Positions 18,882 to 35,314 of a DNA stretch of 64,000 nucleotides are shown here, in pieces. Under the pieces are notes generated by a model, which saw only the letters and a program-made list of their open reading frames with translations, was not told the origin of the DNA and searched no databases. The DNA is from an uncultured Lentisphaeraceae bacterium (GTDB lineage: Bacteria > Verrucomicrobiota > Kiritimatiellia > RFP12 > DVOR01). The translations under genes and the position numbers were made by a program. Position 1 is the first letter of the stretch, and each line of letters opens with the position of its first letter. Location: NCBI GenBank assembly GCA_949282555.1, contig CASDPK010000008.1, positions 3,108 to 67,107 on the forward strand, given 5' to 3'.

Positions 18882-19316
18882 TTACTCAACGGGACGCTTA
18901 CCGATGCAATCCTGGGGGCAGGTCTCACAGTTCCCGTCGCAGGACATTTCGGACTCATCCATCGCCAAATCATTAAAGCACTTTTCCGGGAATTCCTCAA
19001 CCGAAAGCGCATCGGCGACGGAGAAATCCTCAAAGTCGGTGCCCTCCGGAAAGGTGACAAGGTAGTAGGCTTCCGGGTCCAACCCCTCCACGGAGGGTTC
19101 CACGAATCCAGTCTCGGCATCCGTTGTCTCAACGAGGGAGAGCCCCAGTCGCTTGAAGGTATCTTCCGTGACGGCTTCGTCGTAGCACAACAGATCCATG
19201 AGATCGTAACCGGGGCAAGCGATTTGCGTTGCGGAGACGGGGCGGAGGTCAAACTCATCTTCTTCCGCCATGTCGTCCATGGCGGAAGGATCGGTGGGAT
19301 TTAGAGGCTCACTCAT
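18882..19316 (-). CDS. Small highly acidic protein with C-terminal CX3CX2CX3C motif, translationally coupled to the GspK-like gene
   Basis: ATGA overlap (start 19316-19314, upstream stop 19315-19313). Rich in D and E. C-terminus is CDGNCETCPQDC. No recognisable family. Confidence 0.5.
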   Translation of the reverse strand: MSEPLNPTDPSAMDDMAEEDEFDLRPVSATQIACPGYDLMDLLCYDEAVTEDTFKRLGLSLVETTDAETGFVEPSVEGLDPEAYYLVTFPEGTDFEDFSVADALSVEEFPEKCFNDLAMDESEMSCDGNCETCPQDCIGKRPVE

Positions 19317-22300
19317 GGCAACAGCTGGTAGTAGATGACGCGATCCGGAAGTTCGCCGTAGGCGTCGCGCCAAACAAGCGCCACGGCCCGTGCGGTGGAG
19401 AGCGGCTTGTGCTGGGAAAGATCCCGTCCGGAATTGTAGGCGATGGAGTCCGCACGCAAAATGTAGAGGAAGAGTTGCTGGCGGTCACCGAAGCATTCCT
19501 TGGCCGAGGCGACAAGGGTCGTGACGTCGTTCTGACCGAGAATCTTTCCGGTGCCTGCGGCGGCATTGTAAGCCTTGAGGCGATCGGCAAAGGAACCGGA
19601 CCCATCCGCGCCGGCAGGCTGGATGATGAAATCCTCCAACGTCTTAGGACGGGCGGGGCGGCCCTTGGTTCCCTTGTAGAGTTCCTGCTCACGCGTCCAG
19701 TCGCTGGCATTTGCGCCCACACCGCCGCCGGTCGTCGGCAGGGGGAAGAGATAATCACGGATAAAGTCATCGTACTTTGGCGCGGCAAGGCCGCCGGAGG
19801 GCACCTCAATATCCTTCAAGGTGTCCAAATCATCAAGCAGTTTGGGTGAGATCCGACCGGCGCTTTGGGCCGCACTGAGGCGATCATAGGTGACCTTGGC
19901 CGCCTGCTTGATGGTGGGGGCAATACCCAACAGTGCGAATTGTCGCAACCGCTGGCAGAGCACGTAATCATCCTGTCCCGCGAAGACATTGACGAGTGCA
20001 CGGTGCTCTTCCGGGAAGTTGTCGCCACTAAAGCTCTGGAACATGGAGCCAGTCTTGACATAGCGGTCGTAATCCAATGCGCCATCGTTGAAGTCCGCCA
20101 CAGGGAGGGTGCGGTAAAACGATTGCTTGGCCACTTTATCGTGATAATCGGCATAACTGTTTGTCAGATAGCCGCCCTTGTCACCCCAAACGGAGGACGC
20201 GACAGGGACCGGCAGGAAACACGCCTCGGCCGGCAGGAGCAATTGGTCCGTGTCGTTGTAGCCGTATCGGACATCCTCGGCCTTAAGACCCCAAGCGAAG
20301 GGCACAATGTCGGCGTGGGCTTCGGCATAACCCGTCGCGACATCCGAGGCGGAGGAAGAACCTCCGGTGATGTCGACGCCCTGCACGAAGGTCCAGTGCG
20401 GGGAAGAGAAGGAGGGCAACGGAGCAATGCCACTACCGCCGAAGTAGGCATTTCCGGAGTCCGACACGCCCAGCATGGGGGAGAGCCAGTTGTAACGCGG
20501 ATCGACGGCCGACCATGTTCCGGTGTCCGGAGAGAGGGTACTCCACGCGGGCGTGCTGGTTCCGGCAACGGCGAGTTTCCGACCACTGCCAAAGTCGAGC
20601 TCTGTGCTTGGCTCAATTTTGGGCGTCACCGTTACGGCATCGGAAAGTTTGGTTTTGCACTTGTAGCCGGTGATGGCACCGTTTTCACCTTCAATGGGCT
20701 CGGACTCCCACTCAAGTGCGAACTCCAGGACGACGGGCCGGGTGATGCGGAAGAACTGGCCGTCGAACTTCTCCATGGAGGCAGAGTTGAAGCGATCATT
20801 CAACGTCTTTGGATAATCCGTCCGCTGGCGGAGGATCTTGCCGGTGCCGACGGGGCAGATGTCCGCACTTCCACCGCCTCCTGTGGTCTTCGCACGGAAA
20901 AGGAAATCCACAGCGAAAGCCAAGCGCACCTTTGTGGCTTCGGGCTGAATGGGGGTGGCGCTTTCCTTGTTGGCGACGGGGAGATCTTTTCCGCTGAGTT
21001 CCAATTTGAGCTTCGCTCCGGACTTCAAGGGCACGGTGCCTTCAGAGAAGAGTGCACCATCGGCCGTGAGTCCGGTGTCGCCGCCGGAAAGGTCGGCAGA
21101 GGCACTTTCGGTCTTGAATTCCAACTGCTTGTTGTTTGAGACCACAACGGCAGAACCGAATGCCGCCGCAAACCCCTCTGCACCAATCGTGTAACTCTCC
21201 TCGGAGGATTCATAACCGGGGAAATAGGAACGGAGGGAAATCTCCGTTTCCGGAGCGGGGAGCTCAATGTCCAGCACAACGGAATCATCCAGCGTTGTCG
21301 GGAATTTGTCGGGAGAGGTGTAGCCAGTGGCAGGCATTCCCTCCGGCGACTTCCCTTCAAATCCTTTGAGTGCTTCGGTGAGGCCGGAAACAAAGTCGCT
21401 CCCGAGAGAAGTGTCACCATCAAAGGGGTAAGACACGTCGGAGATCATGGGGACGTTTTCGACGGTCGGTTGCGCCTGTGCGAGGAAGTCCGGGTCAGAG
21501 CCGCCGTCCGAATCCAACACCCCGGGCTGAGAATCCTTGTCAAGGTAATCGCGGAGCATTCGCAGGAAGACGGTCGGCGCATCCAACGCATTCCCATCGC
21601 TGATGGTCTTGCGGTAGAGCTCTTCGATTCGCCCGCCAACGGAGGATGCGGAGGAGGGATCGCCGATGTCTTCGGCTTTGACCTCGTCACAAGAGATGAG
21701 CGGAGCGCCATCGGACGTCGTGTTGTCTGCGGTGCCGCCGCTCTTCTCGTCCTTTCGCGTATGGCGGGGCCAGAAACTGTAAACCGAGAAGGGGGAGAAC
21801 CCTCCGATGCCCTCTTTGTAGATGGCGGATTCCCAAGAGTAGGGGTAGATGTCGCTGCCGTTGTCGGTCACCAACAGCGCATCGCTGCCACGTGCCGCAT
21901 ACCATGCCAAATCGGCGTTCGAGAGGAACGTTGGAAGATCCAGTTGGCTACTGGCGGGGTTCTGTTCGGAATCCAACAAATCATAGCGGTCGGAAGCTTG
22001 CCCGGAAGCGGAGGTGCCGGGCGCTTGGCCAAAACCGAATTCATTGCCGGTGAGGCCAATGCCGCGGTAGGGGGAGGCGGACGAAATGCCATTGATGTCC
22101 ACGGAGTCGGAGAGGTTCACCACCGCCCACGCCATGCGCCCGACAACGGCGGTGTTGATTTCCGTCTTACTGCCGCCAACGGTGCTTTCGACAGAGGGAA
22201 TCAGGGCATTGACGGGCTTCCAGCCCGCGGTCCAATCGACATAATATTTCCCGCTGTAACCTTTGTGGCTGATACCATCGTAGAAGGGCTCTTGGAGCTC

Positions 22301-22762
22301 CAACGTGGCATAGACGTTGTAGGCGATGGCGGGCGGGAGATGGCGCAACACCGTATCGTCAAGCAGATAGGCAATCGGCTCTTTGTCGGGCTCACGCTGA
22401 GTGGAGGCAGAGAACTCGCTGGACCCGGTGTTGCGGGACGTGATGAGGCGCCCGTAGTAGTCCAGATTAGGGTAACGGAAGGGGGCGAGCGCTTCAACCG
22501 TGCGGGTGTCGGGGTTGTCACGATCAAACGTCCCGGCCTCGTCTCTCTGGCTTTTGAGGGCGAAGTCCACGGTCGCACGCGCATCGGTGAAGGCCGAGGC
22601 GAGCAACTCTCGGGCAATGAGATTCCGGCGATAGGCGGCCGCGGCGGAGCGCTCCGTGCGCATGGAGATGGAGAAGGCCACGGCACTGATCATCAGAAAA
22701 CCGAGGAGCCCCAACACAATGAGCAGGGCTGAACCGCGCTTTGGATCAGAAGAATGGAACAT
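19313..22762 (-). CDS. Giant GspK-like minor pseudopilin (1149 aa) with a long Ser/Gly/Asp/Thr-rich extracellular region
   Basis: N-terminus KRGSALLIVLGLLGFLMISAVAF matches the GspK signature (R-G-x-ALL-x-VL). It is the last pilin-like gene of the pseudopilin operon. Confidence 0.6.
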   Translation of the reverse strand: MFHSSDPKRGSALLIVLGLLGFLMISAVAFSISMRTERSAAAAYRRNLIARELLASAFTDARATVDFALKSQRDEAGTFDRDNPDTRTVEALAPFRYPNLDYYGRLITSRNTGSSEFSASTQREPDKEPIAYLLDDTVLRHLPPAIAYNVYATLELQEPFYDGISHKGYSGKYYVDWTAGWKPVNALIPSVESTVGGSKTEINTAVVGRMAWAVVNLSDSVDINGISSASPYRGIGLTGNEFGFGQAPGTSASGQASDRYDLLDSEQNPASSQLDLPTFLSNADLAWYAARGSDALLVTDNGSDIYPYSWESAIYKEGIGGFSPFSVYSFWPRHTRKDEKSGGTADNTTSDGAPLISCDEVKAEDIGDPSSASSVGGRIEELYRKTISDGNALDAPTVFLRMLRDYLDKDSQPGVLDSDGGSDPDFLAQAQPTVENVPMISDVSYPFDGDTSLGSDFVSGLTEALKGFEGKSPEGMPATGYTSPDKFPTTLDDSVVLDIELPAPETEISLRSYFPGYESSEESYTIGAEGFAAAFGSAVVVSNNKQLEFKTESASADLSGGDTGLTADGALFSEGTVPLKSGAKLKLELSGKDLPVANKESATPIQPEATKVRLAFAVDFLFRAKTTGGGGSADICPVGTGKILRQRTDYPKTLNDRFNSASMEKFDGQFFRITRPVVLEFALEWESEPIEGENGAITGYKCKTKLSDAVTVTPKIEPSTELDFGSGRKLAVAGTSTPAWSTLSPDTGTWSAVDPRYNWLSPMLGVSDSGNAYFGGSGIAPLPSFSSPHWTFVQGVDITGGSSSASDVATGYAEAHADIVPFAWGLKAEDVRYGYNDTDQLLLPAEACFLPVPVASSVWGDKGGYLTNSYADYHDKVAKQSFYRTLPVADFNDGALDYDRYVKTGSMFQSFSGDNFPEEHRALVNVFAGQDDYVLCQRLRQFALLGIAPTIKQAAKVTYDRLSAAQSAGRISPKLLDDLDTLKDIEVPSGGLAAPKYDDFIRDYLFPLPTTGGGVGANASDWTREQELYKGTKGRPARPKTLEDFIIQPAGADGSGSFADRLKAYNAAAGTGKILGQNDVTTLVASAKECFGDRQQLFLYILRADSIAYNSGRDLSQHKPLSTARAVALVWRDAYGELPDRVIYYQLLP

Positions 22763-22783
22763 GATGAAATCTCCGAAGGCGCT

Positions 22784-23326
22784 TTAGGGATTGAGGATTC
22801 GGTGACGCCCTACCGCAGGTACGAGAATGGTATACTCGTCGTCGGCGTCCTGAGCGTCGGTGACCGCCTGTTTCACGCGGATGCGGTAAGGATTGCCCCA
22901 GGGGTCATAAAGTGTGTTGCCCCGCAAGGTGGGATGGTTGGCATTGAAATAGACGGTCTTGGCATCGTTTGCCGAGGGATCGGTAAGTTTGTTGACGATT
23001 GTTCCCTTGGCTTCGTTGATGCCTTCGGAAAGGCCCAAGTCTCCCATGGGATCCCCACCGTCGTCACCATCGCCATCGGAAGTGTCGAGCATTGTCAGGC
23101 AATAGAGACGGATGGCGTCGCCCAGCGCGCGTCCCTCAGCCGTGGCCTTGACGGTACGGGCGTTTTCTCTGGCGGCGTAGGTCGAGAAAGCAAAACTTGC
23201 AATGAGGATGCCGATGATAGCGATCACCACCAACAACTCAATCAACGTGAACCCGGCACGGGCCGCATGTGCGATCTCATCGTACGGACGTGCAGGGAAT
23301 GGATTGCCTAAATGGTTCAGGTTCAT
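22784..23326 (-). CDS. Type II secretion/type IV pilus-like pseudopilin, GspG-like (carries DPWGNPY)
   Basis: Leader ...ARAG|FTLIELLVVIAIIGIL (prepilin cleavage/methylation motif). C-terminal DPWGNPYRIR matches the GspG hallmark. Start 23326 has a GAGGA RBS. Confidence 0.7.
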   Translation of the reverse strand: MNLNHLGNPFPARPYDEIAHAARAGFTLIELLVVIAIIGILIASFAFSTYAARENARTVKATAEGRALGDAIRLYCLTMLDTSDGDGDDGGDPMGDLGLSEGINEAKGTIVNKLTDPSANDAKTVYFNANHPTLRGNTLYDPWGNPYRIRVKQAVTDAQDADDEYTILVPAVGRHRILNP

Positions 23327-23376
23327 GTCGCGGTCCTCAATCCAAAGGGGTTCGTGGGCATACGCTTGTGCCGTTG

Positions 23377-24174
23377 TCACTTGTCCTCACCTTCCGGCCA
23401 AGGGCGGATATCGTCCTCAGTGCCCCACTCACCATCGGGGCCGCAGGAGGCAACGGCGATCTCGTAATCGTTGACGGTGGGGGGCGTTTGAGGTCTGATT
23501 TTGATTTTGACGGCTGGGAGCGGATAGCTGGAGTTGAAGGCGGCGTCGTAATTGCTGCCGGAGACCGTCTCAAAGGTAATGCTACCGCCCTTGAGTGCGT
23601 ATGTCGTGGAGGTGCTCTTGCCGCCGTCGTAAGGTTCTTCCTTGCGTGTCACGGAGGAGCCACCCGAATACGTCACGCGGATCAGCTCACGGAGCGCTCC
23701 GTTGCCGGAGCCTTTGAGCTGTTCGTCCGGGTCCGTCGGTGGGCGAAGAATCCAAAAATCCAGCCCGCCGGACAGTTTCCCCTCCGCCGCGAGATCACTT
23801 TCGCTTGTGAGCGGGGTTTCCCCATCCATCATCACGAAGTTGTAAGGGTCCACCATCATGGCGAGATCGCGGCCAAGCGCGCCGACAACGGCGCGGGTGA
23901 CGGATTGCGCGTCGGCGCGCTTCAAGCCGAGCGACCATGCCAGCCCTGTCTGCTGGAAGATCCCCGCGACGATGAGCACAATGATGGAGAGGATGGTCAT
24001 CGCCACCAACACTTCAATGAGCGAGAACCCTTGGCGGAGCCTTTGGAGTCCGCGGTGTACGCGATTGAGCGGTGCACCGCATCCACGCTCGCGATACGGA
24101 GCCTCTCGCCCCGAGATACGGACTCCATCGGCCGAGGCCTCAGGCTGTCCTGTGCAAAGATGCGTCAAATCCAT
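23377..24174 (-). CDS. Prepilin-type N-terminal methylation domain protein (minor pseudopilin, GspJ-like position)
   Basis: RLRQG|FSLIEVLVAMTILSIIV motif. The annotated start gives an unusually long leader, so the true start may be a downstream non-ATG codon. Confidence 0.5.
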   Translation of the reverse strand: MDLTHLCTGQPEASADGVRISGREAPYRERGCGAPLNRVHRGLQRLRQGFSLIEVLVAMTILSIIVLIVAGIFQQTGLAWSLGLKRADAQSVTRAVVGALGRDLAMMVDPYNFVMMDGETPLTSESDLAAEGKLSGGLDFWILRPPTDPDEQLKGSGNGALRELIRVTYSGGSSVTRKEEPYDGGKSTSTTYALKGGSITFETVSGSNYDAAFNSSYPLPAVKIKIRPQTPPTVNDYEIAVASCGPDGEWGTEDDIRPWPEGEDK

Positions 24175-24184
24175 GGTCGTGCTC

Positions 24185-24718
24185 CTATTTGTTCGTGGAG
24201 GTGACGAACACGTTTACCACGTAGACCGGGGCGGTTTTCAGCGGGCGTGTGTTCTTGCTGCAATCCTCTCCGGTGGCTTGGACGCAGACTTGGACGGCTT
24301 CGGTCTTCCGGTCGCCGTTGTTCACGGTTTCGATGTTCCCGGAATTGGTGACATCGGGTTCTTTCCACCATGCACGGTACCACACGCCGGAATTTTCGGG
24401 ATCTTCGTGCGCTTCCACCCTGTCGTCGTCTTCCACGGGGTCTTCCACGCGAAAGCCGAAATCGCCCTCCAACTCATCCAGCAACGTGTCGGCATCCACC
24501 ACGCCGGGCTTTTCGGCGACGGTCCGGGCGGCCCCCATGAAGCGTTCACAGAAGGCTGCCACGCGCATTTCGTTGCGGGCGGCCAAGCTTTCACGCAATC
24601 CGAGCGGGAAAAGGCCGAGCAATGCCAACGCCCCGCCGGCCAAAACGAAGATGGCCATGTTGACCTCGATCAGGGAGAAGCCTGCACGCAGGGCCGTATG
24701 AAAGGAAATTCGTCGCAT
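24185..24718 (-). CDS. Prepilin-type N-terminal methylation domain protein (minor pseudopilin, GspI-like position)
   Basis: ALRAG|FSLIEVNMAIFVLAGGALALLGL. Confidence 0.5.
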   Translation of the reverse strand: MRRISFHTALRAGFSLIEVNMAIFVLAGGALALLGLFPLGLRESLAARNEMRVAAFCERFMGAARTVAEKPGVVDADTLLDELEGDFGFRVEDPVEDDDRVEAHEDPENSGVWYRAWWKEPDVTNSGNIETVNNGDRKTEAVQVCVQATGEDCSKNTRPLKTAPVYVVNVFVTSTNK

Positions 24719-24729
24719 GGGGGGCCTCC

Positions 24730-25641
24730 TTATTTGACGCTGACGGTACCCTGACCATCAACACTGACGGTGAAGGTGGCGTTCTTGGCATTCTTCGAGA
24801 TCGAGTGCGCCGCAGTGACCGAAGAGGCGGAGCCGGATTGGAGGCTCCCCTCGGGGCCAAAGATGAAGACCGCCCGATCGCCGCCCTCAAACGCATAAGC
24901 GTCGGGCAGAGAGAAGGTCGCCGTCACACGCACGGCCATCGGGAAGGCGCGGTCACTGGGAGCCGAGCCTTCCAGCGTCGCGACCCAAAAACCGGGGTTA
25001 CTCCGGGTGGCGCCTTCCTCGCCAATCTCAAGGTCTGCGTCTCCAGCGAGCATTTCCAACGACTTCTTCTGCCCTGCGACCCAGTAATCATAACTGAGAC
25101 GATTCTTGCGGTTGTTGTTGATTTGCTCGTTCAGATCGTCATTATCCTTTGTGGGATCATCCGCGATTTTGTCAATCCGCATAAAGGTGGACGCATCGGG
25201 GTCGAACAAGTTGATGGCTCGGGCGTTTTTGCGCAAGGCCGCGCCCAAGACTTCCCGCTGAAGGCCAAACGGAGCGAGCAAGGTTTTTCCCTCGTGCCAA
25301 ACGTTCCCGATGGATTGGAAGAGCGCGTAACGTCCCTGCTTTACTTTCTGCTTTTTACTGCCGACCACGATCTCGGTGTCGCTGTTCCAACAAACCACCA
25401 CGTGCGTTTTGCCGAGGATACAGGCCTGCTGTCGCGCCAAGAGGAGCGTGTCTCGGAGTTGGTTGCGGCTTTTGGTGACCCCTTCTTGGCGCATGGCACC
25501 GAAAAAGGAGGTGGCGGCCATGGTGATGAGCATCGCGGCGATGCCGATGACCACCATCAGTTCGATCAGTGTGAAACCCGAACGTCGGGAAAGTGTTCCT
25601 TCCCGTGCCGACGCGTCTGTCCCGAAAAACGTCATACCCAT
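24730..25641 (-). CDS. Prepilin-type N-terminal methylation domain protein (GspH-like pseudopilin)
   Basis: SRRSG|FTLIELMVVIGIAAMLITMA. Its size and position match GspH-type proteins. Confidence 0.55.
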   Translation of the reverse strand: MGMTFFGTDASAREGTLSRRSGFTLIELMVVIGIAAMLITMAATSFFGAMRQEGVTKSRNQLRDTLLLARQQACILGKTHVVVCWNSDTEIVVGSKKQKVKQGRYALFQSIGNVWHEGKTLLAPFGLQREVLGAALRKNARAINLFDPDASTFMRIDKIADDPTKDNDDLNEQINNNRKNRLSYDYWVAGQKKSLEMLAGDADLEIGEEGATRSNPGFWVATLEGSAPSDRAFPMAVRVTATFSLPDAYAFEGGDRAVFIFGPEGSLQSGSASSVTAAHSISKNAKNATFTVSVDGQGTVSVK

Positions 25642-25709
25642 TTGGAAATCCCTTTCGTCGTGCGAGGTTCACAGGGGGTCGCAGATCCGGCGCCCAATGT
25701 TCTGGCCGA

Positions 25710-26363
25710 TCAGTTCAATTGGATCACCTCTGCGAAGCTTCCTTCGTGAGGGGAGGTGACGGAGACATGATCCAAATCAAAATCATAGGTGATTTTGAGC
25801 GGGGCAAACGCTCTCGCTTGGCTGAGACGTTTGTACTTGCTGACGCCGGTCTTGTTCATTGTGACCAAGAACCCGATCATGTCACTGGCCGAAACGCCGC
25901 CGCCTGTGAGCGCATCGTCAAGTTTGGTGACGCGGCGTCCACCTTTGCAGACGTAGAACATTGAGGAATCCGTGATATAAGCGCGCTTTGCGTCATCACG
26001 CTTGCCGTTGGCATCGCGCCCAAGAAGCAACATCACGATTTCGGCATTGCCCTCCTTGGGGCGATTGTTGTTGACGGAGCCGAAGGTCGCGGAGCTAACG
26101 TCGGAGGAGTACGCCTCGGGGAGCGGATAGGCGCCATGCTCGTTCTTGTAGGCCATGATGGCACTTTCGACGATTTCCACGCAAGCGTTGCGCTTTGTCT
26201 TCTCGGCGCCTTTGATTACACGGGTCACGCCAATGACGCCCAATCCGACCAACGTGGCGAGGATGACCACCACCACCATCAGTTCAATCAATGTGAAGCC
26301 TGCACGGGAGCGTTGGGCGGCCTTGAGGGAGCGTAAGGAAGCAAGCGGAGTCGCGATATTCAT
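25710..26363 (-). CDS. Prepilin-type pseudopilin (GspG-like paralog)
   Basis: SRAG|FTLIELMVVVVILATLVGLGVIGV...AIMAYKNEHGAYP, a GspG-like N-terminal helix. Confidence 0.6.
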   Translation of the reverse strand: MNIATPLASLRSLKAAQRSRAGFTLIELMVVVVILATLVGLGVIGVTRVIKGAEKTKRNACVEIVESAIMAYKNEHGAYPLPEAYSSDVSSATFGSVNNNRPKEGNAEIVMLLLGRDANGKRDDAKRAYITDSSMFYVCKGGRRVTKLDDALTGGGVSASDMIGFLVTMNKTGVSKYKRLSQARAFAPLKITYDFDLDHVSVTSPHEGSFAEVIQLN

Positions 26364-26447
26364 GGATGAAATCCTTTTTGAGCGTTGAGGCTGGGAACGT
26401 GAGAAGAGAGGCGCGGCAATGGCAACCGCGCCATGTCTTGCACGCGT

Positions 26448-27089
26448 TTACCAACTTTGGGCGTAGACTTCGCCGTTCTTTTCACCGTCTTCCGCCCAGC
26501 ACCAAACCGCGGCGTCTCCGCGGACTTTGCCGCCGGGCACCGACAATTTGGCGGGAAGGCCATCGGAAGAATCGACGATGCCATCCTCGTTGACATCAAG
26601 GACAAATTGGTAAAGGTGATCGGTCACATCCGAACCGCTCCGGCCTTGCTTAAAGCGCTTGGCGCCGATGGGATCAAGCATGCCGTACTTCAATTCGGCC
26701 TCGTTTTCCCTGTTACGGCGGAGGCCGGCCTGCGTGGTGGAATCCGTCGCGTCGGTGTCGATATAGAGCACGTCCAAAAGGCCGGCCTTGCCCAACACCA
26801 AGCACATATCCGTGTCCATGGACTTCACGCCGGAGGAGGCGATTTTGTATTCTTCCGGCCAAAAGCCGACATCGCGGTGATAGTTGGTCCACGCCACGGC
26901 AATCTGCTTGCAGTCGTCGGCGGCATTTTTTCGACGCGCCGATTCCATGAACGCCGTGTAACCGCCGGCGGTGATGCCCCCCAAAATGCCGAGGATCACG
27001 ATGACGACGAGCAACTCAATGAGCGTGAAACCCGCACGGCGAGCGCCAAGGCCCTGAGTGCGGCGTCCGAAAGCATGCGTTCCGTTCAT
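26448..27089 (-). CDS. Prepilin-type pseudopilin (GspG-like paralog)
   Basis: ARRAG|FTLIELLVVIVILGILGGITAGGYTAF. Confidence 0.6.
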   Translation of the reverse strand: MNGTHAFGRRTQGLGARRAGFTLIELLVVIVILGILGGITAGGYTAFMESARRKNAADDCKQIAVAWTNYHRDVGFWPEEYKIASSGVKSMDTDMCLVLGKAGLLDVLYIDTDATDSTTQAGLRRNRENEAELKYGMLDPIGAKRFKQGRSGSDVTDHLYQFVLDVNEDGIVDSSDGLPAKLSVPGGKVRGDAAVWCWAEDGEKNGEVYAQSW

Positions 27090-27126
27090 AAGAATCTCCC
27101 TCTTCCTCTAGGCATGATGGCCGTAA

Positions 27127-27945
27127 TCAGTCCTCGTCGTCATCGGCGATGCCGCTGGCCGTGATGTCGTCGGCCGTCCCGAAGGCTCCATCCGGGCCGG
27201 CGGAGATGATTTCCCCGGCGCCGCCATCGTTCCGATACTTGAGGGCGTGCTCCCAGGCATCGCTCTTGGCACCTGCGGTATAACGTTGGGCGCCGCATTC
27301 GACACAGACGGTTTCTCCACTTTTCACCAAGCCATCTTTTTGGAGACGTCGCCAAGTACGGTAGATCTGCTGAAGATTGTTGTCTGCGGCTTCATTGGCG
27401 GCAGTGGCGCCCAAGGCGTCGCTCGCGTTTTTGAGCCCTCGGATTTCGGTGGCCCACGGCGTGTCTGCCGCGGGATTCCGATACATTTCTTTGTAGTGGC
27501 CCAGAAGCTCATCGGAAACGGCTTCTGAAATCACGGTTGCACGTGGCACAAAGTGTGAACACAGGCCGAACTGAATTTCGTCGGCATTGTTGCTGTTGGT
27601 GACGGCTTTGAATCCGCAGTATTTGCATCCGGGCGAGCCCGACTCGGAAACAAAGCGGAAGTCCAAAGGGGCGTACCCATTGCTATCCGTATTGGAAACG
27701 ACGGGATAATCGCCGTAGATGGCCTTGTATTCCTCGAGCAAGGTGGCGATGGCGTGGATTTGCGCGGTGGTTTCCGCGATCGCGGCTTTGTCACGCGCGG
27801 CACGGATCATTCGGAAGAGTCCCGCCGCCAAAATGCCGAGGATCACGATGACGACCAACAATTCAATGAGCGTAAACCCCGCGCGTTGCCGAATGCGCGT
27901 TTGCGCCGGCATGACGGCGCGGTTGCCAAACGATAAGTGGTTCAT
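27127..27945 (-). CDS. Prepilin-type pseudopilin (GspG-like paralog) with acidic C-terminal tail
   Basis: RQRAG|FTLIELLVVIVILGILAAGLF...EEYKAIYGDYP. Start 27945 has a GGAGGG RBS. The tail ends ...ASGIADDDED. Confidence 0.6.
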   Translation of the reverse strand: MNHLSFGNRAVMPAQTRIRQRAGFTLIELLVVIVILGILAAGLFRMIRAARDKAAIAETTAQIHAIATLLEEYKAIYGDYPVVSNTDSNGYAPLDFRFVSESGSPGCKYCGFKAVTNSNNADEIQFGLCSHFVPRATVISEAVSDELLGHYKEMYRNPAADTPWATEIRGLKNASDALGATAANEAADNNLQQIYRTWRRLQKDGLVKSGETVCVECGAQRYTAGAKSDAWEHALKYRNDGGAGEIISAGPDGAFGTADDITASGIADDDED

Positions 27946-28029
27946 GGAAAATCCCTCCGACAAAACGGAATGAAGCCTGATGGTGGGCGGGGCCGCACCA
28001 TGCCGTGCGAACCTCGCCCGCCGGGGCTG

Positions 28030-29322
28030 TTAGGCCCCGGTCTGCTGGCCGATGGTGCCGATGATGGAGATCAGCGGCATGAACATGGCGATGACGATGC
28101 CGCCGACCACGACGGCAAGGAAGATGATCATGATGGGCTCGATGATCGAGGTCATGGCGGCCACCGCGTTGTCCACTTCATCGTCGTAGGTGTTGGCCAC
28201 GCGGATGAGCATCTCGGGAAGGGCGCCGGTCTCTTCGCCGACTTCCACCATGGAAACGACCATGGGCGGGAAGACGCCGCTGGCGCCGAGGGGCGCCGTC
28301 ATGCCCTCGCCTTCCTTCACGCTGTCGTGGACGGATTGGAGCGCCTTGGAGATGACTTGGTTGCCGGTGGTCTCCTTGACGATGCTGAGCGCCTGGAGCA
28401 CCGGAACGCCGGAGCTGAGCAGGGTGCCAAGCGTACGGGTGAGACGCGCGACCACGGTCTTTTGGGTGAGTTGTCCGAAGACCGGCGCACGCAGGGCCAT
28501 GACGTCGTGGGCGTAGGAGCCGAAGGGCGTCTTGAAGAAGATCTTGGAGAGGACGACAAAACCGACGATGCCCGCGATGAGGAAGAGCCAGTAGTTTTGC
28601 ACCCACTCGGAGAGGCTGATGACGAACTGCGTAAGCGCGGGCATTCCTTCGCCGCCCATGAGGTCATCGAAGATCTGCTGGAACTTCGGAATGACCGCGA
28701 GCATCAGGAAGATCACAATGCCCAACGCGGCGCAGAGCACCACGATGGGGTAGGTCATCGCGCCCTTGACCTTGTTCTTGATCTTTTCGGCCTTTTCCAT
28801 GAACTCGGCCAAGCGGTTGAGCACCGTTTCCAACACACCGCCGGCCTCGCCGGCCTTGACCATGTTCACATAGAGGTGGTTGAAGATCTTGGGGTAGTTG
28901 CCCAACGATTCCGAGAAGGTGTTGCCGGTCTCCACGGTTTCAATCATTCCGTTGAGGGCGTCCTTGAGCGTTTCGTTGGCCGCCTGCCGGTGAAGCACAC
29001 GCAAACCGCGCAACAGGGGAAGGCCCGCATCCACCAGCGTCGCCAGCTGGCGCGTGAAGACCATCAAGTCTTTGGTCTTCACTTTGGCACGCAGGAACTT
29101 CGGGGTCTTGATTGTGATGTTTGCGGACTTTTTGGGCGCGGAGCCCTTGGCAGGCTTGGGGGCGGCCCCATCTGAAGCGTCTTCCTTGATCAGGCCGATG
29201 GCCTTGGGCGTGAGCTTCATGGCACGAATCTTTTCGATCGCGGCGCCTTGGGAATCGGCCTCGACTGTGCTAAGCACTTCCTTGCCTTGGGAATCCACTG
29301 CCTTGTACCTGAACTTGGCCAT
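28030..29322 (-). CDS. gspF: Type II secretion system / type IV pilus platform protein GspF/PilC family
   Basis: MAKFRYKAVDSQGKEV... N-terminus, two GspF-type repeats, three TM segments. Start 29322 was verified as a CAT reverse complement. Confidence 0.85.
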   Translation of the reverse strand: MAKFRYKAVDSQGKEVLSTVEADSQGAAIEKIRAMKLTPKAIGLIKEDASDGAAPKPAKGSAPKKSANITIKTPKFLRAKVKTKDLMVFTRQLATLVDAGLPLLRGLRVLHRQAANETLKDALNGMIETVETGNTFSESLGNYPKIFNHLYVNMVKAGEAGGVLETVLNRLAEFMEKAEKIKNKVKGAMTYPIVVLCAALGIVIFLMLAVIPKFQQIFDDLMGGEGMPALTQFVISLSEWVQNYWLFLIAGIVGFVVLSKIFFKTPFGSYAHDVMALRAPVFGQLTQKTVVARLTRTLGTLLSSGVPVLQALSIVKETTGNQVISKALQSVHDSVKEGEGMTAPLGASGVFPPMVVSMVEVGEETGALPEMLIRVANTYDDEVDNAVAAMTSIIEPIMIIFLAVVVGGIVIAMFMPLISIIGTIGQQTGA

Positions 29323-29383
29323 CGTCGTGTGTCCTTGTTTTGAGCTCAATGGGGCACGGCCCCAATTCCACATTGCTTTTTCA

Positions 29384-29412
29384 TTATAGCCGAAGCCTCC
29401 GACCTTCTGCAA
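29384..29412 (-). promoter_or_regulatory. Candidate sigma70 promoter TTGCAG-N17-TATAAT upstream of gspF
   Basis: Minus-strand -10 TATAAT at 29384-29389 and -35 TTGCAG at 29407-29412. These are the same hexamers as the promoter at 17943-17972. Confidence 0.4.
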
Positions 29413-29489
29413 CAGGAACGTGCCGCATGGGCTGATTGCTTTCGGGCGGTTCGCGTTTATGGGGGAAATGTGCTATAAGTTGCGGACCT

Positions 29490-31028
29490 ATGGAATGTGT
29501 TGCCCAGTTATTCCCGTTTTCGCCGACGGCCTCCGCGCTGGCGGCGGAGGTGGTTGCCGCGTGCCGTCGAGGACGGGTGCGCGTGGCGACGGCGGAGTCT
29601 TGCACGGGCGGCTTGGTGGGGGCGGTGCTGACGTCGGTGCCCGGGGCCAGCGCGGTTTTCAATGGGGGGACGGTCTGCTATCAGAACCGCCTGAAGGCGT
29701 CGTTCTTGGGGGTTCGTTGGGAAACCTTGGAGCGTGTGGGGGCGGTGAGTGCGGAGTGTGCGCGGCAGATGGCCGAGGGGGTCTGCCATGCGACGGATTC
29801 GGGCTTGGGCCTCGCGGTGACGGGGATTGCCGGGCCGGGGGGAGAGGGGCCGGAGAAGCCCGCGGGATTGGTCTATACGGCCGTGTCGCTCGCGGGGGCG
29901 ACGGTGGTGCGTGAGAACCGGTTCGCGGGGGATCGCGCGTCCGTGCGGGCTCAGAGTGTTGAGATGGTTTTGCAGATGGCACTGGAGTGCCTCAGAAAGA
30001 GAGAAGCGAAGATGGTCAACATCGACTGGTCGAAACTCGGTTTCGCGTATATGCCTACGCGGAGCCACATCCGTTACACTTGGAAAGATGGCGCATGGGA
30101 CAAGGGCGTACTTGTCAACGAGCCGACCATTACGATGTCCGTAGCCGCCGGATGCCTGCACTATGGCCAGGAGGCCTTTGAGGGCTTGAAGGTGTTCCGT
30201 CAGAAGGATGGCCGTGTGGTGGCGTTTCGCCCGGACATGAATGCTGAGCGTTTGCAGCGCACGGCCCGCAAAACGGTGATGCCGCCGGTGTCGACGGAGA
30301 TGTTCTTGGAGGCGCTGGAGCGCGTGGTGCGTGACAACATTGACTATGTGCCGCCCTATGGCACAGGATGCGCGATGTATGTGCGCCCGTTGCTCATCGG
30401 CACGGGGCCTCAGATCGGCGTGGCCCCCGCGCATGAATACACGTTCTTGATGATGGTCATGCCGATGGGTGACTATTACAAGGGCGGAATCAAGCCCGTG
30501 AAGGCCGTCATTTTCGACGAGTACGATCGCGCGGCCCCTCAGGGCATGGGCGACGTGAAGGTGGGTGGCAACTATGCCGCCAGCCTTTATGCCCACGAGC
30601 GCGCCCATGGGATGGGCTTCCCCGTGGAGCTGTATTTGGACGCGAAGACGCATACGAACGTGGAAGAGTTCGCGACCTCCAATTTCCTCGGTTTCAAGAA
30701 GGATGGCACCTTTGTGACCGTGCGTTCCGACTCGGTGTTGCCGTCCGTCACGAACCTTTCCCTGCAACAGTTGGCCACGGATATGGGCCACAAGGTGGAA
30801 GTGCGCACGGTGCCCTATGCGGAGTTGGCCGATTTCGCCGAGATCGGCGCCTGCGGCACGGCGGTGGTGGTGACTCCGGTCTGCGAGATCCACCGGGGCG
30901 AGGAGGTCATCAAAGTGGGTTCGCCGGATGTTTGCGGGCCGAACCTGCTGAAACTGCATGACGCCGTGCAGGACATTCAGTTCGGCCGCGTTCCCGATCC
31001 GTACGGTTGGTGTTACGCCATTCAGTGA
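29490..31028 (+). CDS. ilvE: In-frame fusion ORF: CinA C-terminal domain (PncC-like NMN deamidase) plus branched-chain amino acid aminotransferase (class IV, about 340 aa)
   Basis: N-terminal ATAESCTGGLVGAVLTSVPGASAVFNGGTVCYQN is CinA_C. From the internal Met (30012) MVNIDWSKLGFAYMP...FEGLKVFR... is a typical long-form BCAT. No stop codon lies between the two domains. Confidence 0.7.
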   Translation: MECVAQLFPFSPTASALAAEVVAACRRGRVRVATAESCTGGLVGAVLTSVPGASAVFNGGTVCYQNRLKASFLGVRWETLERVGAVSAECARQMAEGVCHATDSGLGLAVTGIAGPGGEGPEKPAGLVYTAVSLAGATVVRENRFAGDRASVRAQSVEMVLQMALECLRKREAKMVNIDWSKLGFAYMPTRSHIRYTWKDGAWDKGVLVNEPTITMSVAAGCLHYGQEAFEGLKVFRQKDGRVVAFRPDMNAERLQRTARKTVMPPVSTEMFLEALERVVRDNIDYVPPYGTGCAMYVRPLLIGTGPQIGVAPAHEYTFLMMVMPMGDYYKGGIKPVKAVIFDEYDRAAPQGMGDVKVGGNYAASLYAHERAHGMGFPVELYLDAKTHTNVEEFATSNFLGFKKDGTFVTVRSDSVLPSVTNLSLQQLATDMGHKVEVRTVPYAELADFAEIGACGTAVVVTPVCEIHRGEEVIKVGSPDVCGPNLLKLHDAVQDIQFGRVPDPYGWCYAIQ

Positions 31029-31141
31029 CGGAAGTGAATGGCCGATGGGCGGCATGCGGGTGAAGATATCGCATGCCGGAGAAGGTGCCCCGCGTCTCTT
31101 TGGGGTGATCATCGTCCGATGAGTCAATGAAAGGAGCTTTT

Positions 31142-32890
31142 ATGTCGTTTTCCCCCTTGCAGCGAGGCCGTACAGGCGCACAGTGCGTGGTCGATGGACT
31201 CATCAACAACGGTTGTGAGGTCCTTTTCGGGTATCCCGGTGGGCAGGCCATCGATATCTTCGACAAGCTTTACGGCGCGCCGCTTCGGCTCGTCCTCCCG
31301 CGTCACGAACAGGGGGGCGTTCACATGGCCGATGGTTATGCGCGCGCCACGGGCAAGGTGGGATGTGTGCTCGTCACCTCCGGCCCCGGTGCGACCAATG
31401 CGGTCACCGGACTTGCCACGGCCATGATGGACGGCATCCCGCTGGTGGTGATTTCCGGACAGGTGGGTATGGGCCTCATCGGAACCGATGCCTTCCAAGA
31501 GGCAGACACGACGGGAATCACCCGTAGCGTCACGAAGCATAACTTCTTGGTGCGGTCGGTGGACGAGATTCCGCGCACGATCACCGAGGCTTTCCACATT
31601 GCTTCCACCGGAAAGCCTGGGCCTGTGCTTGTGGACATCCCCAAGAATCTCCAGCAGGCTTACACCACGCAACCGGATGTCCGGGACGTGGTCATCCGTG
31701 CTTATCACCCGACGGTGCTTGCGCCGCCTGAGCAGATTGAGCGCCTTGCCGATGCCATCAACAAGAGCCACCGCCCGGTGCTTTACGTGGGCGGCGGCGC
31801 GATCACCTCCGGCGCGTGCGCGCTGATTCGCTCTCTCGCCGAGACTTACGACATCCCTGTCTGCACCACGCTGATGGGGCTGGGCGCTTTCCCCGAAACC
31901 TCGCCGCTTTCGCTGTGGATGGTGGGAATGCACGGCTCCGTGGCCGCCAACAATGCCATTCAGCAGGCGGATCTCGTTATCGCCGCGGGCGCCCGCTTCG
32001 ATGACCGCGTGACGGGGCGTATCTCTGATTTCGCTTGTGCGGCGCAGGTGGCGCACATTGATGTGGATGCCTCCTCCATTGGCAAGAATGTGGAAACCGA
32101 TTTGCCCGTGTGCGGCGACCTTCGGCAAACGCTTGAGGCGCTCTTGCCGTTGCTCAAGCGGGCGGATCGTTCGGATTGGCTGGCGCAAATCTCCAAGTGG
32201 CGCGAGGCCAAACCTGCCGTTTACTTCCCGCGCAAGGATGGTAAGCTCCAGCCGCAGGCGGTGATCGAGGCGATTGATCGCGTCTCCAAGGGTTCCGCCA
32301 CCATCGTCACCGACGTGGGGCAGAACCAGATGTGGGCCGCGCAGTTCTTCCGCTACACGCGGCCGCGGTCCTTCCTCAGTTCCGGCGGATTGGGCACGAT
32401 GGGTTTTGGCGTGCCCGCGGCCATCGGGGCGCAGTTGGGCCGGCCTGATGCGCTGGTGGTTTCGGTGAATGGCGACGGTGGGTTCCAGATGAATATTCAG
32501 GAGCTCGTCGTGGCGGTTGAGCACAAGCTTCCGGTGAAGTTCGTGATCCTCAACAACTCCCGTCTCGGCATGGTGCGCCAGTGGCAGGATCTCTTCTATG
32601 AGGGCCGTCACTCCGCCACCATCCTCACGCAACATGACCGCCCGGAGAATGAGCACATCCATGCGGAGGAGCCGGCGTATCTTCCGGACTTTGTCAAGGT
32701 GGCTGAGGCTTATGGCATCAAGGCCGTGCGCGTAGCCACGTTGGCCGATGCGGAGGCGGCGTTGGCTGAGGCTTTCGCCGACCCGAGCCCTCGCTTGATT
32801 GAGTGCATCGTGGCCGAAGATGAGAACGTGTTGCCGATGGTTGCCCCGGGCGCCGCGCTCTCTGAGATGATCCTTGCCAACGCGAACTAA
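31142..32890 (+). CDS. ilvB: Acetolactate synthase large (catalytic) subunit
   Basis: ThDP-enzyme motifs and the ALS N-terminus GAQCVVDGLINNGCEVLFGYPGG. AAGGAG RBS 5 nt before ATG 31142. Confidence 0.9.
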   Translation: MSFSPLQRGRTGAQCVVDGLINNGCEVLFGYPGGQAIDIFDKLYGAPLRLVLPRHEQGGVHMADGYARATGKVGCVLVTSGPGATNAVTGLATAMMDGIPLVVISGQVGMGLIGTDAFQEADTTGITRSVTKHNFLVRSVDEIPRTITEAFHIASTGKPGPVLVDIPKNLQQAYTTQPDVRDVVIRAYHPTVLAPPEQIERLADAINKSHRPVLYVGGGAITSGACALIRSLAETYDIPVCTTLMGLGAFPETSPLSLWMVGMHGSVAANNAIQQADLVIAAGARFDDRVTGRISDFACAAQVAHIDVDASSIGKNVETDLPVCGDLRQTLEALLPLLKRADRSDWLAQISKWREAKPAVYFPRKDGKLQPQAVIEAIDRVSKGSATIVTDVGQNQMWAAQFFRYTRPRSFLSSGGLGTMGFGVPAAIGAQLGRPDALVVSVNGDGGFQMNIQELVVAVEHKLPVKFVILNNSRLGMVRQWQDLFYEGRHSATILTQHDRPENEHIHAEEPAYLPDFVKVAEAYGIKAVRVATLADAEAALAEAFADPSPRLIECIVAEDENVLPMVAPGAALSEMILANAN

Positions 32891-32900
32891 GGAGGTTCCC

Positions 32901-33377
32901 ATGCAGAAGCATATTCTCAACGTTCTGGTCGAGAACCGCCCGGGCGTCTTGGCGCGTATCGTTGGAATCATTTCCGGCCGTGGCTACAACATTGAGACGC
33001 TCAACGTCGGCCCCACCAACGATGATTCCACGTCCAAGATGACCATTGTGATCCCCGGTGACCGCAAGGTCATCGACCAGGTGGTGGCTCAGTTGGCCAA
33101 GCAGATCAATGTCTTCCGCGTGGACAATGTCACGGCGGTGCCGCACATTGATCGCGAAGCGATTCTGCTCAAGGTCAGCACGCGCGCCACAGGGCGTGCG
33201 CCCGTCATTGAAGTGGCGATGCTTTTCGGTGCGAAGGTCGTTGGCGTTCTCCCCGATGCGCTGACCATTCAGATGATTGGTTCGCAGATGCAGGTGGAGC
33301 AATTCCTCACCCTGATGCATCCCTTCGATGTGCTCGATATCTCCCGTTCCGGGTCCATCGCGGTGACGCAGGCTTGA
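32901..33377 (+). CDS. ilvH: Acetolactate synthase small (regulatory) subunit
   Basis: ACT-domain N-terminus MQKHILNVLVENRPGVLARIVGIISGRGYNIETLNVG. GGAGG RBS. Confidence 0.85.
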   Translation: MQKHILNVLVENRPGVLARIVGIISGRGYNIETLNVGPTNDDSTSKMTIVIPGDRKVIDQVVAQLAKQINVFRVDNVTAVPHIDREAILLKVSTRATGRAPVIEVAMLFGAKVVGVLPDALTIQMIGSQMQVEQFLTLMHPFDVLDISRSGSIAVTQA

Positions 33378-33429: not shown

Positions 33430-34263
33430 ATGCAACGCTTCGCCGTCCTTGGCCATCCCATCGGCCACAGTTTCTCGCCGGTCATGCACACGGCGAGCTT
33501 TCGGAAGATTGGTTTCGACGGCGAATATGTCCGCTTGGACGTTCCGCCGGAAACGTTGGCCGACGCGCTCAACGCACTCGCCGACGAGGGGTTCACGGGC
33601 GCCAACCTCACCATCCCTCACAAGCAGTTGGCGGTGCCGATGATGGATCGGCTCACACCCGAGGCTGAACGGCTTGGGGCTGTGAATACGGTTCTCTTTC
33701 GCGACGGCAAGATGTGGGGGCACAATACCGATGGCCCCGGATTCCTTGCGGCGGCAAAGACCATGCTGGATTTTCACCCCGAGGGGCGCCGTGCGGCGGT
33801 GATCGGGTGCGGTGGCGCGGGTCGTGCGATCGCCATCACCCTCGCGCATGCGGGCGTCCGAACGTTGGGACTGATCGACTTGGATACCGCCCGTGCGGAG
33901 GCTCTTGCGCGGGAGATTTCCGAGACGTCCCCCGCGCAGGCCGAAGTTATTGGCCATGACCGTTTGCGTGAGGCTGACCTTGTGGCGCAGTGTTCGCCCA
34001 GCGGGTTGGCGGTGTTCCCTGAGCCCGCGGCCCGAATGGCGGATTTCCGCGAAGGGCAATGTCTGTACGATATTGTCATCCCTCCGGGTGCGCCCGTCAC
34101 CCCCACAATGGCAGAGGCTTCGAAAGCGGGGGTCCGGTGCGCCAATGGCGTTCGGATGCTGGTGGAGCAGGGGGCGCTTTCCTTTGCCTTTTGGACGGGC
34201 CTTGAGGCCGATCGCGAGGCGATGTGCCGCGCGGTGGAGGAAGGTTTGGCCGGGCATGAATGA
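33430..34263 (+). CDS. aroE: Shikimate dehydrogenase
   Basis: FAVLGHPIGHSFSPVMH..., LTIPHKQ, GAVNTV, and the Rossmann motif GCGGAGRA. Confidence 0.85.
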   Translation: MQRFAVLGHPIGHSFSPVMHTASFRKIGFDGEYVRLDVPPETLADALNALADEGFTGANLTIPHKQLAVPMMDRLTPEAERLGAVNTVLFRDGKMWGHNTDGPGFLAAAKTMLDFHPEGRRAAVIGCGGAGRAIAITLAHAGVRTLGLIDLDTARAEALAREISETSPAQAEVIGHDRLREADLVAQCSPSGLAVFPEPAARMADFREGQCLYDIVIPPGAPVTPTMAEASKAGVRCANGVRMLVEQGALSFAFWTGLEADREAMCRAVEEGLAGHE

Positions 34264-35314
34264 GTGGCTCATCGGGCTCCCGGAGGAACAGGCACTTTGG
34301 CTCGCCCGAGTGTCGATTGCCTTTGTGCTTTGCCTTGGGGCCATCATTGGGAGCTTCCTCAACGTCTGCATCTATCGCATCCCGTTGGGGCAATCGGTGA
34401 GTGTGCCGCGGTCGCATTGTTTCGGTTGCGGAAAGACCATCCCTTGGTACTTTAACATCCCGGTGCTCTCCTGGTTTTTCCTGCGGGGGAAATGTGCGTA
34501 TTGCGGCAGTGAGATCAGCGTGCGCTATCCCGTGATTGAGGCGCTGACGGCGGTGCTCTTTCTGCTCGTATTCCAAATGTGGGGCAATCCGGCGTTGTTC
34601 GGGTTGAGCCGCCTCCAAATCCCCGAACTGATCCCGTTCTATTGGCTCTTTGTCGCCTCCACGGTCGTGAACGTCATGATCGACTTGGATCATCGTATTT
34701 TGTTGGACCGGATCTCGTTGGGAGGGACCTTGCTCACGCTTGTCGCCTCGGCGGCCTTTCCTGTGATGCAGGGACAAACGACGCTTCTTGCCGGACTGGG
34801 GCACGCGGTGCTGGGCGCGGTGGTGGGATTCGGCACGGGATTCCTCGTCGCTTGGGCCGGTGAACGTATTTTCCTGCAGGATGCGTTCGGATTCGGCGAC
34901 GTGAAGTGGATGATGTTGTTCGGTGCGCTCTTCGGATGGAAGGGATTCTTTTACATTCTCTTGATCGCCGCAGGGGTGGGGCTTGTGATGGGGCTTTGCG
35001 CCATGCTTGCCCAGCGTGCCCGTGCGGGGCTTCGGGCGGAGCCGTTGGCGATCCCCTTTGGCCCGGCGCTGGGAACCGGGGCGCTGCTGTGGTTGTTTTG
35101 GGGGCATTGGGTGACGCGCGGACTGGAAGCGGCGGTTCTTTGGGCGCAAGCCCGCCAAGGGCTCGTGTTGGCCGTGGTGTTGCCGGTGCTGTTGCTCCTC
35201 TCGATTTGGCTGTGCGTCCGTATCTATTTCATCCGGAAAGCGGTCCGAGAGGAAGAGGCCGCCGAAGAGCTGACGCCCTTGCCCGAGAACCCAACCGACG
35301 GAGACCACCCCTGA
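34256..35314 (+). CDS. Prepilin leader peptidase / N-methyltransferase (A24 family) with C-terminal extension
   Basis: CxxC...CxxC zinc motif (CFGCG...CAYCG) and polytopic membrane domain typical of PilD/GspO. 8-bp overlap with aroE (ATGAATGA). Confidence 0.8.
   Translation: MNEWLIGLPEEQALWLARVSIAFVLCLGAIIGSFLNVCIYRIPLGQSVSVPRSHCFGCGKTIPWYFNIPVLSWFFLRGKCAYCGSEISVRYPVIEALTAVLFLLVFQMWGNPALFGLSRLQIPELIPFYWLFVASTVVNVMIDLDHRILLDRISLGGTLLTLVASAAFPVMQGQTTLLAGLGHAVLGAVVGFGTGFLVAWAGERIFLQDAFGFGDVKWMMLFGALFGWKGFFYILLIAAGVGLVMGLCAMLAQRARAGLRAEPLAIPFGPALGTGALLWLFWGHWVTRGLEAAVLWAQARQGLVLAVVLPVLLLLSIWLCVRIYFIRKAVREEEAAEELTPLPENPTDGDHP

Follow-up and report, generated by a model that had tools for sequence, protein, structure and literature searches.

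The stretch of DNA analyzed here (64,000 nucleotides of contig CASDPK010000008.1, assembly GCA_949282555.1, from an uncultured Lentisphaeraceae bacterium; hereafter, the window) contained a single 512-codon open reading frame (ORF) in which a cinA (pncC-like) gene and the branched-chain aminotransferase (BCAT) gene ilvE were joined in frame. We consider it likely that this ORF is a genuine fusion of adjacent genes, that it is read through into a two-domain polypeptide of 55 kDa, and that it is a nearly neutral version of what is elsewhere a coupled pair of genes. The ORF was located on the plus strand at 29490 to 31028, with an ATG at 29490 and the first in-frame stop codon, TGA, at 31026 to 31028. 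A mechanical ORF call covered 29436 to 31028 and opened with TTG; the start at 29490 was preferred because the orthologs in the clade all begin with “ME..” at the matching position.

The CinA/PncC-type amidohydrolase domain occupied amino acids (aa) 1 to 174 (29490 to 30011), and the type II, class IV BCAT domain occupied aa 175 to 512 (30012 to 31025). Across the junction, the protein read LECLRKREAK and then MVNIDWSKLGFAYMP, the continuation being MVNIDWSKLGF, and the peptide spanning the junction was REAKMVNIDWSK. At the DNA level, AAG (30009 to 30011) was followed directly by ATG (30012 to 30014), the former start codon of ilvE and now the internal Met175, which lies in the cinA frame (30009 − 29490 = 519 = 3 × 173). 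The sequence was therefore as an earlier note on this DNA had described it, an in-frame join of the two coding regions with no intervening stop codon. The same note had expected products of about 57 and 38 kDa; the calculated mass of the fusion was 55.2 kDa, that of BCAT from Met175 was 37.4 kDa, and that of the CinA part was 17.9 kDa. A paralog check of the 64-kb window found no second copy of either cinA or ilvE.

Fused and unfused relatives

The fusion recurred in other assemblies and in diverged relatives. A 512-aa protein with 99% identity and an identical junction (P0001) was found on contigs of four other samples, ERZ16268080, ERZ16268161, ERZ16268180, and ERR10610470. Diverged fused orthologs were found in four further lineages from different projects, namely, P0002 (locus L052; 87% identity), P0004 (L005; 81%; NCBI GCA_965320725.1), P0005 (L006; 73%), and P0006 (L007; 71%), and in all four the junction DNA differed from that of the window and was still in frame. 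Met175 was invariant across the five fused lineages, the window included, and no relative, fused or unfused, departed from the corresponding ATG. Between the fused lineages, in which dS (synonymous substitutions per synonymous site) ranged from 0.6 to 1.9, the ratio of the nonsynonymous rate dN to dS was 0.10 to 0.34 for the CinA part and 0.02 to 0.12 for the BCAT part, and both halves have therefore been held by purifying selection while fused. These comparisons confirmed that the fusion is genuine, heritable, and recurrent. The earlier note had envisaged that this genome might be the only exception among orthologs with two separate genes, and the four diverged fused lineages among the orthologous loci compared ruled this out. 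The 572-aa gene call for P0006 (L007, 4001 to 4180) is apparently about 60 residues too long at its N terminus, the 512-aa orthologs starting near MD(G/I)VFTD.

The two joined genes stand at the head of a conserved block, cinA (C-domain only)-ilvE-ilvB-ilvN-aroE-prepilin peptidase. This block was found in one clade of uncultured gut and rumen bacteria of the Planctomycetes-Verrucomicrobia-Chlamydiae (PVC) group, recorded as Kiritimatiellia, “Ca. Spyradenecus,” or Lentisphaeraceae, and the genes upstream of it varied between loci. At every locus with a BCAT at least 79% identical to that of the window, the same block was present and cinA adjoined ilvE. This adjacency was absent wherever the identity was 67% or lower, as in the rumen Kiritimatiellae, the Lentisphaeria/Victivallales, and other phyla, where cinA was sought within at most 3 kb on each side. 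The titles of the metagenome-assembled genomes of the clade were inconsistent, ranging over Kiritimatiellia/Kiritimatiellaeota, Lentisphaeraceae, and “Candidatus Spyradenecus” (placed by NCBI in the Lentisphaerota). One further record, L020 (CAVDHG010000044.1), was titled “Agathobacter rectalis,” although its cinA-ilvE block was of the PVC type, with 83% identity to the window protein; this is probably contamination of that bin.

The pair was unfused in about 22 distinct lineages, compared with the 5 that were fused. In the unfused loci, the cinA stop codon was offset by −8 nt (upstream) to +13 nt (downstream) from the first base of the ilvE ATG, in six arrangements: a 7-nt gap (L028); a 2-nt spacer (L002, L019, L021, and L023); a 1-nt spacer (L001, L004, L013, L015, L017, and L018); an ATGA overlap (L051, L058, and L059); an 8-nt overlap (L008, L020, L022, L024, and L040); and a 14-nt overlap (L010, L011, L012, L014, L016, and L025). 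In a neighbor-joining (NJ) tree of ilvE DNA, the window and L052, both fused, grouped with L051, L058, and L059, which have the ATGA overlap (94% bootstrap support). The fused L005 was a weakly supported sister of this group (53%), and L006 and L007, both fused, formed a separate clade (100%). On this tree, two independent fusions and at least one further switch within the window's own group appear to be needed.

The origin of the fusion from a gene pair was indicated by orthologs that were adjacent and in the same order, by the nesting of fused forms among separate ones, and by a small indel that suffices to explain the difference; for example, the junctions of the fused L052 (GAGAGACGAAG ATGACC) and the unfused L059 (GAGAGACACC ATGACC) differed in length by one base. 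The fusion is thus one state of a labile, purine-rich junction at which one-base indels shift the cinA frame against a fixed ilvE ATG; such indels have changed the pair from one state to the other no fewer than three times. The lost stop codon suggested by the earlier note holds in this evolutionary sense, a 1-nt indel relative to unfused relatives having placed cinA in the ilvE frame, and does not hold as an error. The clade offers a clean natural series in which overlapping, apparently coupled genes flip between the two-gene and fused states by single-base indels. For annotation, the locus should be kept as one gene, with no frameshift “repair.”

The CinA and aminotransferase domains

The N-terminal part matched Pfam CinA (PF02464) over aa 16 to 168 and almost the whole model (positions 3 to 155 of 155; E = 9e-50; 168.8 bits against a cut-off of 23.5) and passed TIGR00199 (PncC_domain; 149.3 bits against 68.9). 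The models for two-domain CinA, NF001813 and TIGR00200, were not satisfied (159.9 bits against 379 and 113.1 bits against 243, respectively), and the match to the two-domain model was limited to positions 252 to 412 of 414. No match to PF00994 was obtained in a Pfam scan of the fusion protein, and the N-terminal MocF/COG1058 domain was accordingly absent. The motifs recognized were AESCTGG (29592 to 29612), YQNRLK (29679 to 29696), GAVS, MAEG, TGIAGP, KPAG, and RASVR. Sequence blocks that separate active from inactive nicotinamide mononucleotide (NMN) deamidases have been defined (PMC3855486), and those tested here were P-I (AESCTGG), P-III (YxNxxK), P-IV [G(A/V)VS], P-VI [(S/T)G(I/V)AGP], P-VII (KPxG), and P-VIII [Rxx(V/I)R]. 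All six were present, at aa 35, 64, 84, 111, 123, and 149, respectively; in the fusion, P-VI read TGIAGPGGE, which is one residue off the AGPxGG consensus. The G+C content at third codon positions (GC3) of the CinA part was 0.80, matching that of ilvE.

The C-terminal part matched Pfam Aminotran_4 (PF01063; aa 229 to 467; E = 2.5e-28) and passed two BCAT equivalog models, NF009897 (396.1 bits against 307) and TIGR01123 (ilvE_II; 343.5 bits against 250). The motif carrying the pyridoxal phosphate (PLP) lysine, KVGGNY, was located at aa 357 to 362 (from 30558), and K357, which we take to be the Schiff-base lysine, was invariant in the 13 sequences aligned, as were G359, G360, N361, and Y362. The best solved BCAT relative was 7lv7 (E = 2e-114), and residues 6 to 343 of 4dqn aligned to aa 175 to 511. 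The low dN/dS of the BCAT part in fused lineages is an indirect indication that transaminase activity may be retained in the fused state. Each domain is an ordinary member of its family; among solved structures, 2A9S stood nearest to the CinA part and 7LV7, 4DQN, and 3UYY to the BCAT part.

The first half resembles the single-domain PncC/CinA NMN deamidases (Escherichia coli YgaD and Agrobacterium tumefaciens CinA, PDB 2A9S), with which it has in common the PF02464 domain of about 165 to 170 aa (2A9S match, E = 5e-28 over aa 16 to 165) and the blocks AESCTGG, YxNxxK, GAVS, MAxG, TGIAGP, KPxG, and RxxVR, but in the window the domain has no stop codon, runs into BCAT, and falls below the PncC equivalog cut-off. 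PncC is likewise part of a bifunctional polypeptide in the two-domain CinA proteins of, for example, Thermus thermophilus and Shewanella oneidensis, where it is joined to an ADP-ribose pyrophosphatase domain, MocF/COG1058 (PMC3855486, PMC3680494, and PMC4246079). In those proteins the partner is N-terminal and serves pyridine-nucleotide recycling, whereas in the window PncC is itself N-terminal, MocF is lacking, and the partner is an enzyme of branched-chain amino acid (BCAA) metabolism. The CinA architectures described in these papers carry their added domains or extensions at the N terminus, PMC3855486 giving N-terminal additions only, and none has BCAT as a C-terminal partner. The second half shared with type II bacterial IlvE (PDB 7LV7, 4DQN, 3UYY, and 3HT5) a full-length match, scores above the equivalog cut-offs, and the PLP-lysine motif, and it differed in carrying a 174-aa N-terminal CinA domain, with BCAT beginning exactly at the former start methionine and no added linker.

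A search of the representatives of 1.84 billion clusters at 50% identity gave no other protein combining CinA with BCAT in its 150 best matches; this search is blind to fusions grouped under an unfused representative. Pfam scans of ten selected cluster hits covered nine long BCATs, which were joined to unrelated neighbors (NFACT, UvrB, DinB, and methyltransferases), and the best CinA match, P0222. A junction-spanning query of 161 aa returned short proteins only, missing even the known fused ones. CinA with a C-terminal BCAT partner is a new domain architecture of narrow distribution; its parts are known, and nothing in it hints at new chemistry. Neighboring genes of an operon are known to fuse when the stop codon between them is lost, as in hisI-hisE and trpC-trpF, which are fused in some bacteria. 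The present case is similar in that overlapping or abutting cotranscribed neighbors were joined by a small indel and that fused and split forms coexist, but hisI-hisE and trpC-trpF join consecutive steps of one pathway, whereas the two activities in the window belong to unrelated pathways.

Initiation signals and predicted products

Two conserved elements preceded the ilvE ATG within the 3′ end of cinA. The first was an RNA hairpin, GGCAC-UGGA-GUGCC, at 29978 to 29991 on the plus strand, with the general form GGCAC-N4-GUGCC and a stem of 5 bp. It was predicted in the minimum free energy fold, and across 24 lineages 95.8% of cells were paired, with 5 double-change (compensatory) cells distributed over 3 of the 5 pairs; none of 500 shuffles matched the paired fraction or the compensatory-cell count, 2 of 500 reached three compensatory pairs, and slid partners were 18 to 54% paired. 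In the clade formed by L006 and L007 (fused clade B), the outer pair was A-U in L006 and G-C in L007 by way of synonymous changes. The Ala codon in the stem, GCA, made up 4% of the Ala codons of cinA-ilvE, ilvB, ilvN, and aroE. The hairpin might insulate the ilvE initiation region, act in coupling, or mark a processing site.

The second element was a purine tract, GAAAGAGAG, at 29995 to 30003 (plus strand), a putative weak, split Shine-Dalgarno (SD)-like element for ilvE. The tract GAAAGNGAG, of the form GAAAG(N)GAG, was present in 27 of 27 loci, and in 26 of them GAAAG ended 10 to 14 nt from the ATG (12 nt before it in the window). It was read in all three cinA codon phases (11, 10, and 6 loci), and what is conserved is therefore the nucleotide sequence, not the peptide. 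Its duplex with the anti-SD sequence, which involves a one-base bulge, was −5.2 kcal/mol, the 30th percentile of ATGs in the window, and SD strength thus did not separate the internal ATG at 30012 from the background ATGs of the window. The SD at the ilvE ATG was weak in fused and unfused loci alike (−2.9 kcal/mol in fused clade B), and those downstream were −8.2 kcal/mol for ilvB (AAAGGAG) and −12.3 kcal/mol for ilvN (AAGGAGG). Of all 40-nt windows of the ORF, the one from −20 to +19 around the ATG at 30012 ranked within the 1.7% with the least folding and within the 3% with the lowest GC content. The ilvE initiation module, consisting of hairpin, purine tract, open RNA, and ATG, is therefore retained inside the fused ORF, and these initiation signals of the downstream gene persist inside the fused ORF throughout the clade series.

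The following course of events is proposed. In the unfused layout, translation of ilvE would be coupled to that of cinA, as suggested by the weak ilvE SD and the closeness of the cinA stop codon to the ilvE start codon. Gain or loss of one base between the purine tract and the start codon would bring cinA into the ilvE frame, with the loss of every stop codon, and ribosomes initiating at 29490 would read through into a 55-kDa polypeptide. The predicted product has an N-terminal PncC-type (NMN-deamidase-like) amidohydrolase and a C-terminal PLP-dependent BCAT, linked by about six residues (RKREAK) of the former CinA tail. In an AlphaFold2 model, the terminal helix of CinA (aa 149 to 173) led straight into the first BCAT strand (aa 175 to 179) with no long linker; the model was run on a 13-row alignment and had a mean predicted local distance difference test score of 71.9, with the junction blocks at 52 to 63. 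Some free 37-kDa BCAT might also be made from Met175, given that the initiation module is retained; we rate this about as likely as not. Because fused and separate states have been interchanged several times, the fusion resembles a tolerated, nearly neutral form of the coupled pair more than a new pathway. Programmed recoding (frameshifting or readthrough) was considered and rejected, as both parts lie in the same frame with no stop codon between them, no frameshift is needed, and conserved structure was limited to the region upstream of the junction, with no stimulatory structure downstream.

Several points weigh against this reading. Fusion is the less common state, and the gene pair is unfused in every one of the 18 GTDB species representatives that have it. 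The number of state changes is uncertain, as it depends on a single-gene NJ tree in which L005 was placed with 53% support. The translation products, the enzyme activities, and the coupling are what we infer from sequence. On the PncC equivalog model NF002975 (nicotinamide-nucleotide amidase), the CinA domain fell short, with 121.6 bits against 212, and NMN may for this reason not be its substrate; the name “NMN deamidase” is best taken as a family-level designation. Finally, the AlphaFold2 model is too modest to speak to the packing of the domains or to the compatibility of two dimeric enzymes.

A closely related explanation is that the gene has two products, with independent initiation at Met175 (30012) supplying free 37-kDa BCAT as the main aminotransferase and the 55-kDa fusion as a by-product. 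This is compatible with the read-through fusion favored here and differs only in which product matters. It would account for the invariance of the ATG in all five fused lineages, for the spacing of the tract from the ATG irrespective of cinA phase, fused alleles included, for the preservation of the hairpin in fused clade B by paired synonymous changes, and for the open RNA around the ATG; in addition, the three unfused lineages with the ATGA overlap, which belong to the same well-supported clade as the window and L052, use the same ATG. However, the SD-like duplex is weak, termination-reinitiation would be lost where no stop codon is nearby, and, with dN as observed, the retention of Met in five lineages makes no compelling statistical case. 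We regard such a division of roles as quite possible but would not put it ahead of read-through. Two proteins are made from one ORF by in-frame internal starts in E. coli infB, cheA, and clpB; the window is similar to these in that a longer ORF encloses an ATG together with open RNA and a retained SD-like tract, but its SD is weak and its internal start is putative. The internal-start arrangement raised by the earlier note is thus rather favored for an additional product, in view of the retained initiation module.

No known leader or riboswitch was present at the locus, an Rfam scan of the whole window having given no hits. A scan of 29200 to 31300 for sigma-70 promoters and intrinsic terminators, which may not suit the host phylum, found neither, and nothing therefore pointed to a promoter inside the ORF or to a terminator separating the two domains.

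Possible functional linkage, remaining alternatives, and neighboring genes

The earlier note had proposed a bifunctional protein linking NAD salvage to BCAA transamination. A real, conserved, and selected fused ORF was borne out; the metabolic link was not, since adjacency and fusion were all that pointed to it. A “Rosetta-stone” interpretation would nonetheless tie the CinA-like domain to BCAT or BCAA synthesis, the domain acting on a metabolite of the pathway or of its cofactor rather than on NMN, and the fusion reflecting a physical complex or a coupled stoichiometry. In its favor, cinA (C-domain) stood directly upstream of ilvE at every locus of the clade, whatever stood further upstream, the fusion arose at least two times, and the CinA domain scored below the PncC equivalog cut-off. 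Against it, NMN deamidation and BCAA transamination are not known to have a substrate or intermediate in common, and the blocks of the active PncC type that were tested were all intact. Furthermore, fused and unfused states alternated among close relatives, suggesting little selective benefit, and for the same reason the fusion itself probably matters little. A text search of one collection of papers for CinA, branched-chain aminotransferase, and fusion returned nothing relevant. The invariable position of cinA as the first cistron of the ilv/aro block, together with its low equivalog score, leaves a small chance of a BCAT-related role, and we consider the interpretation as a whole improbable. 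A more elaborate form, in which the cinA-ilvE partnership is real and the hairpin and phase-independent purine tract make up a dedicated intragenic element that sets the ratio of fusion to free BCAT, appears to us just as doubtful.

The locus offers an inexpensive test of whether domains of the CinA family, whose physiological roles are debated, serve amino acid metabolism. Should the two domains prove independent, the case would caution against inferring function from “Rosetta-stone” fusions.

A further proposal, that the CinA part is a decaying pseudogene and a mere untranslated or irrelevant leader for ilvE, could draw on the cinA start at 29490, which had no recognizable SD (−3.2 kcal/mol), and on P0003, a 99%-identical fusion allele (ENA contig of 3,766 nt) with a 56-aa in-frame gap in the CinA domain, corresponding to about 29790 to 29957 of the window. 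It is very unlikely in view of the dN/dS of 0.10 to 0.34 between fused lineages, the full-length Pfam match with every catalytic block tested present, and a GC3 equal to that of ilvE. The gap in P0003 deletes the TGIAGP, KPxG, and RxxVR blocks, and this allele is either misassembled or a naturally occurring form in which CinA is dead and BCAT is kept. The sequencing error also suggested by the earlier note, that is, a stop codon or frameshift missed in sequencing or assembly, might be prompted by the predominance of two-gene relatives, the 18 GTDB representatives among them, and by the position of the junction within a low-complexity purine tract, but is scarcely credible given that five independent assemblies from different samples agree on the junction, that the frame is likewise open in four diverged lineages, which come from different projects and differ in junction sequence, that the longest homopolymer in the tract is AAA, and that the frame stayed open while a dS of 0.6 to 1.9 accumulated.

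Downstream on the plus strand, the fused ORF was followed by the remaining genes of the block: ilvB, encoding the acetolactate synthase large subunit (31142 to 32890); ilvN, encoding the small subunit (32901 to 33377); and aroE, encoding shikimate dehydrogenase (33430 to 34263). For both ilvB and ilvN, the likely true start (ATG at 31142 and at 32901, respectively) comes after the first start codon of the ORF (31127 to 31142 and 32874 to 32901, respectively). With its strong SDs at ilvB and ilvN, the organism contrasts with its own cinA (29490) and ilvE (30012) starts. Divergent from the fusion gene, the minus strand (19313 to 29412) carried a T2SS-F/PilC-like gene (28030 to 29412) and five ORFs with prepilin N-methylation motifs (27127 to 27963, 26448 to 27089, 25710 to 26363, 24730 to 25641, and 23377 to 24174), and beyond these an ORF of 1,149 aa (19313 to 22762) without a Pfam match. 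A matching prepilin peptidase gene was located on the plus strand at about 34256 to 35314, at the end of the ilv/aro block.

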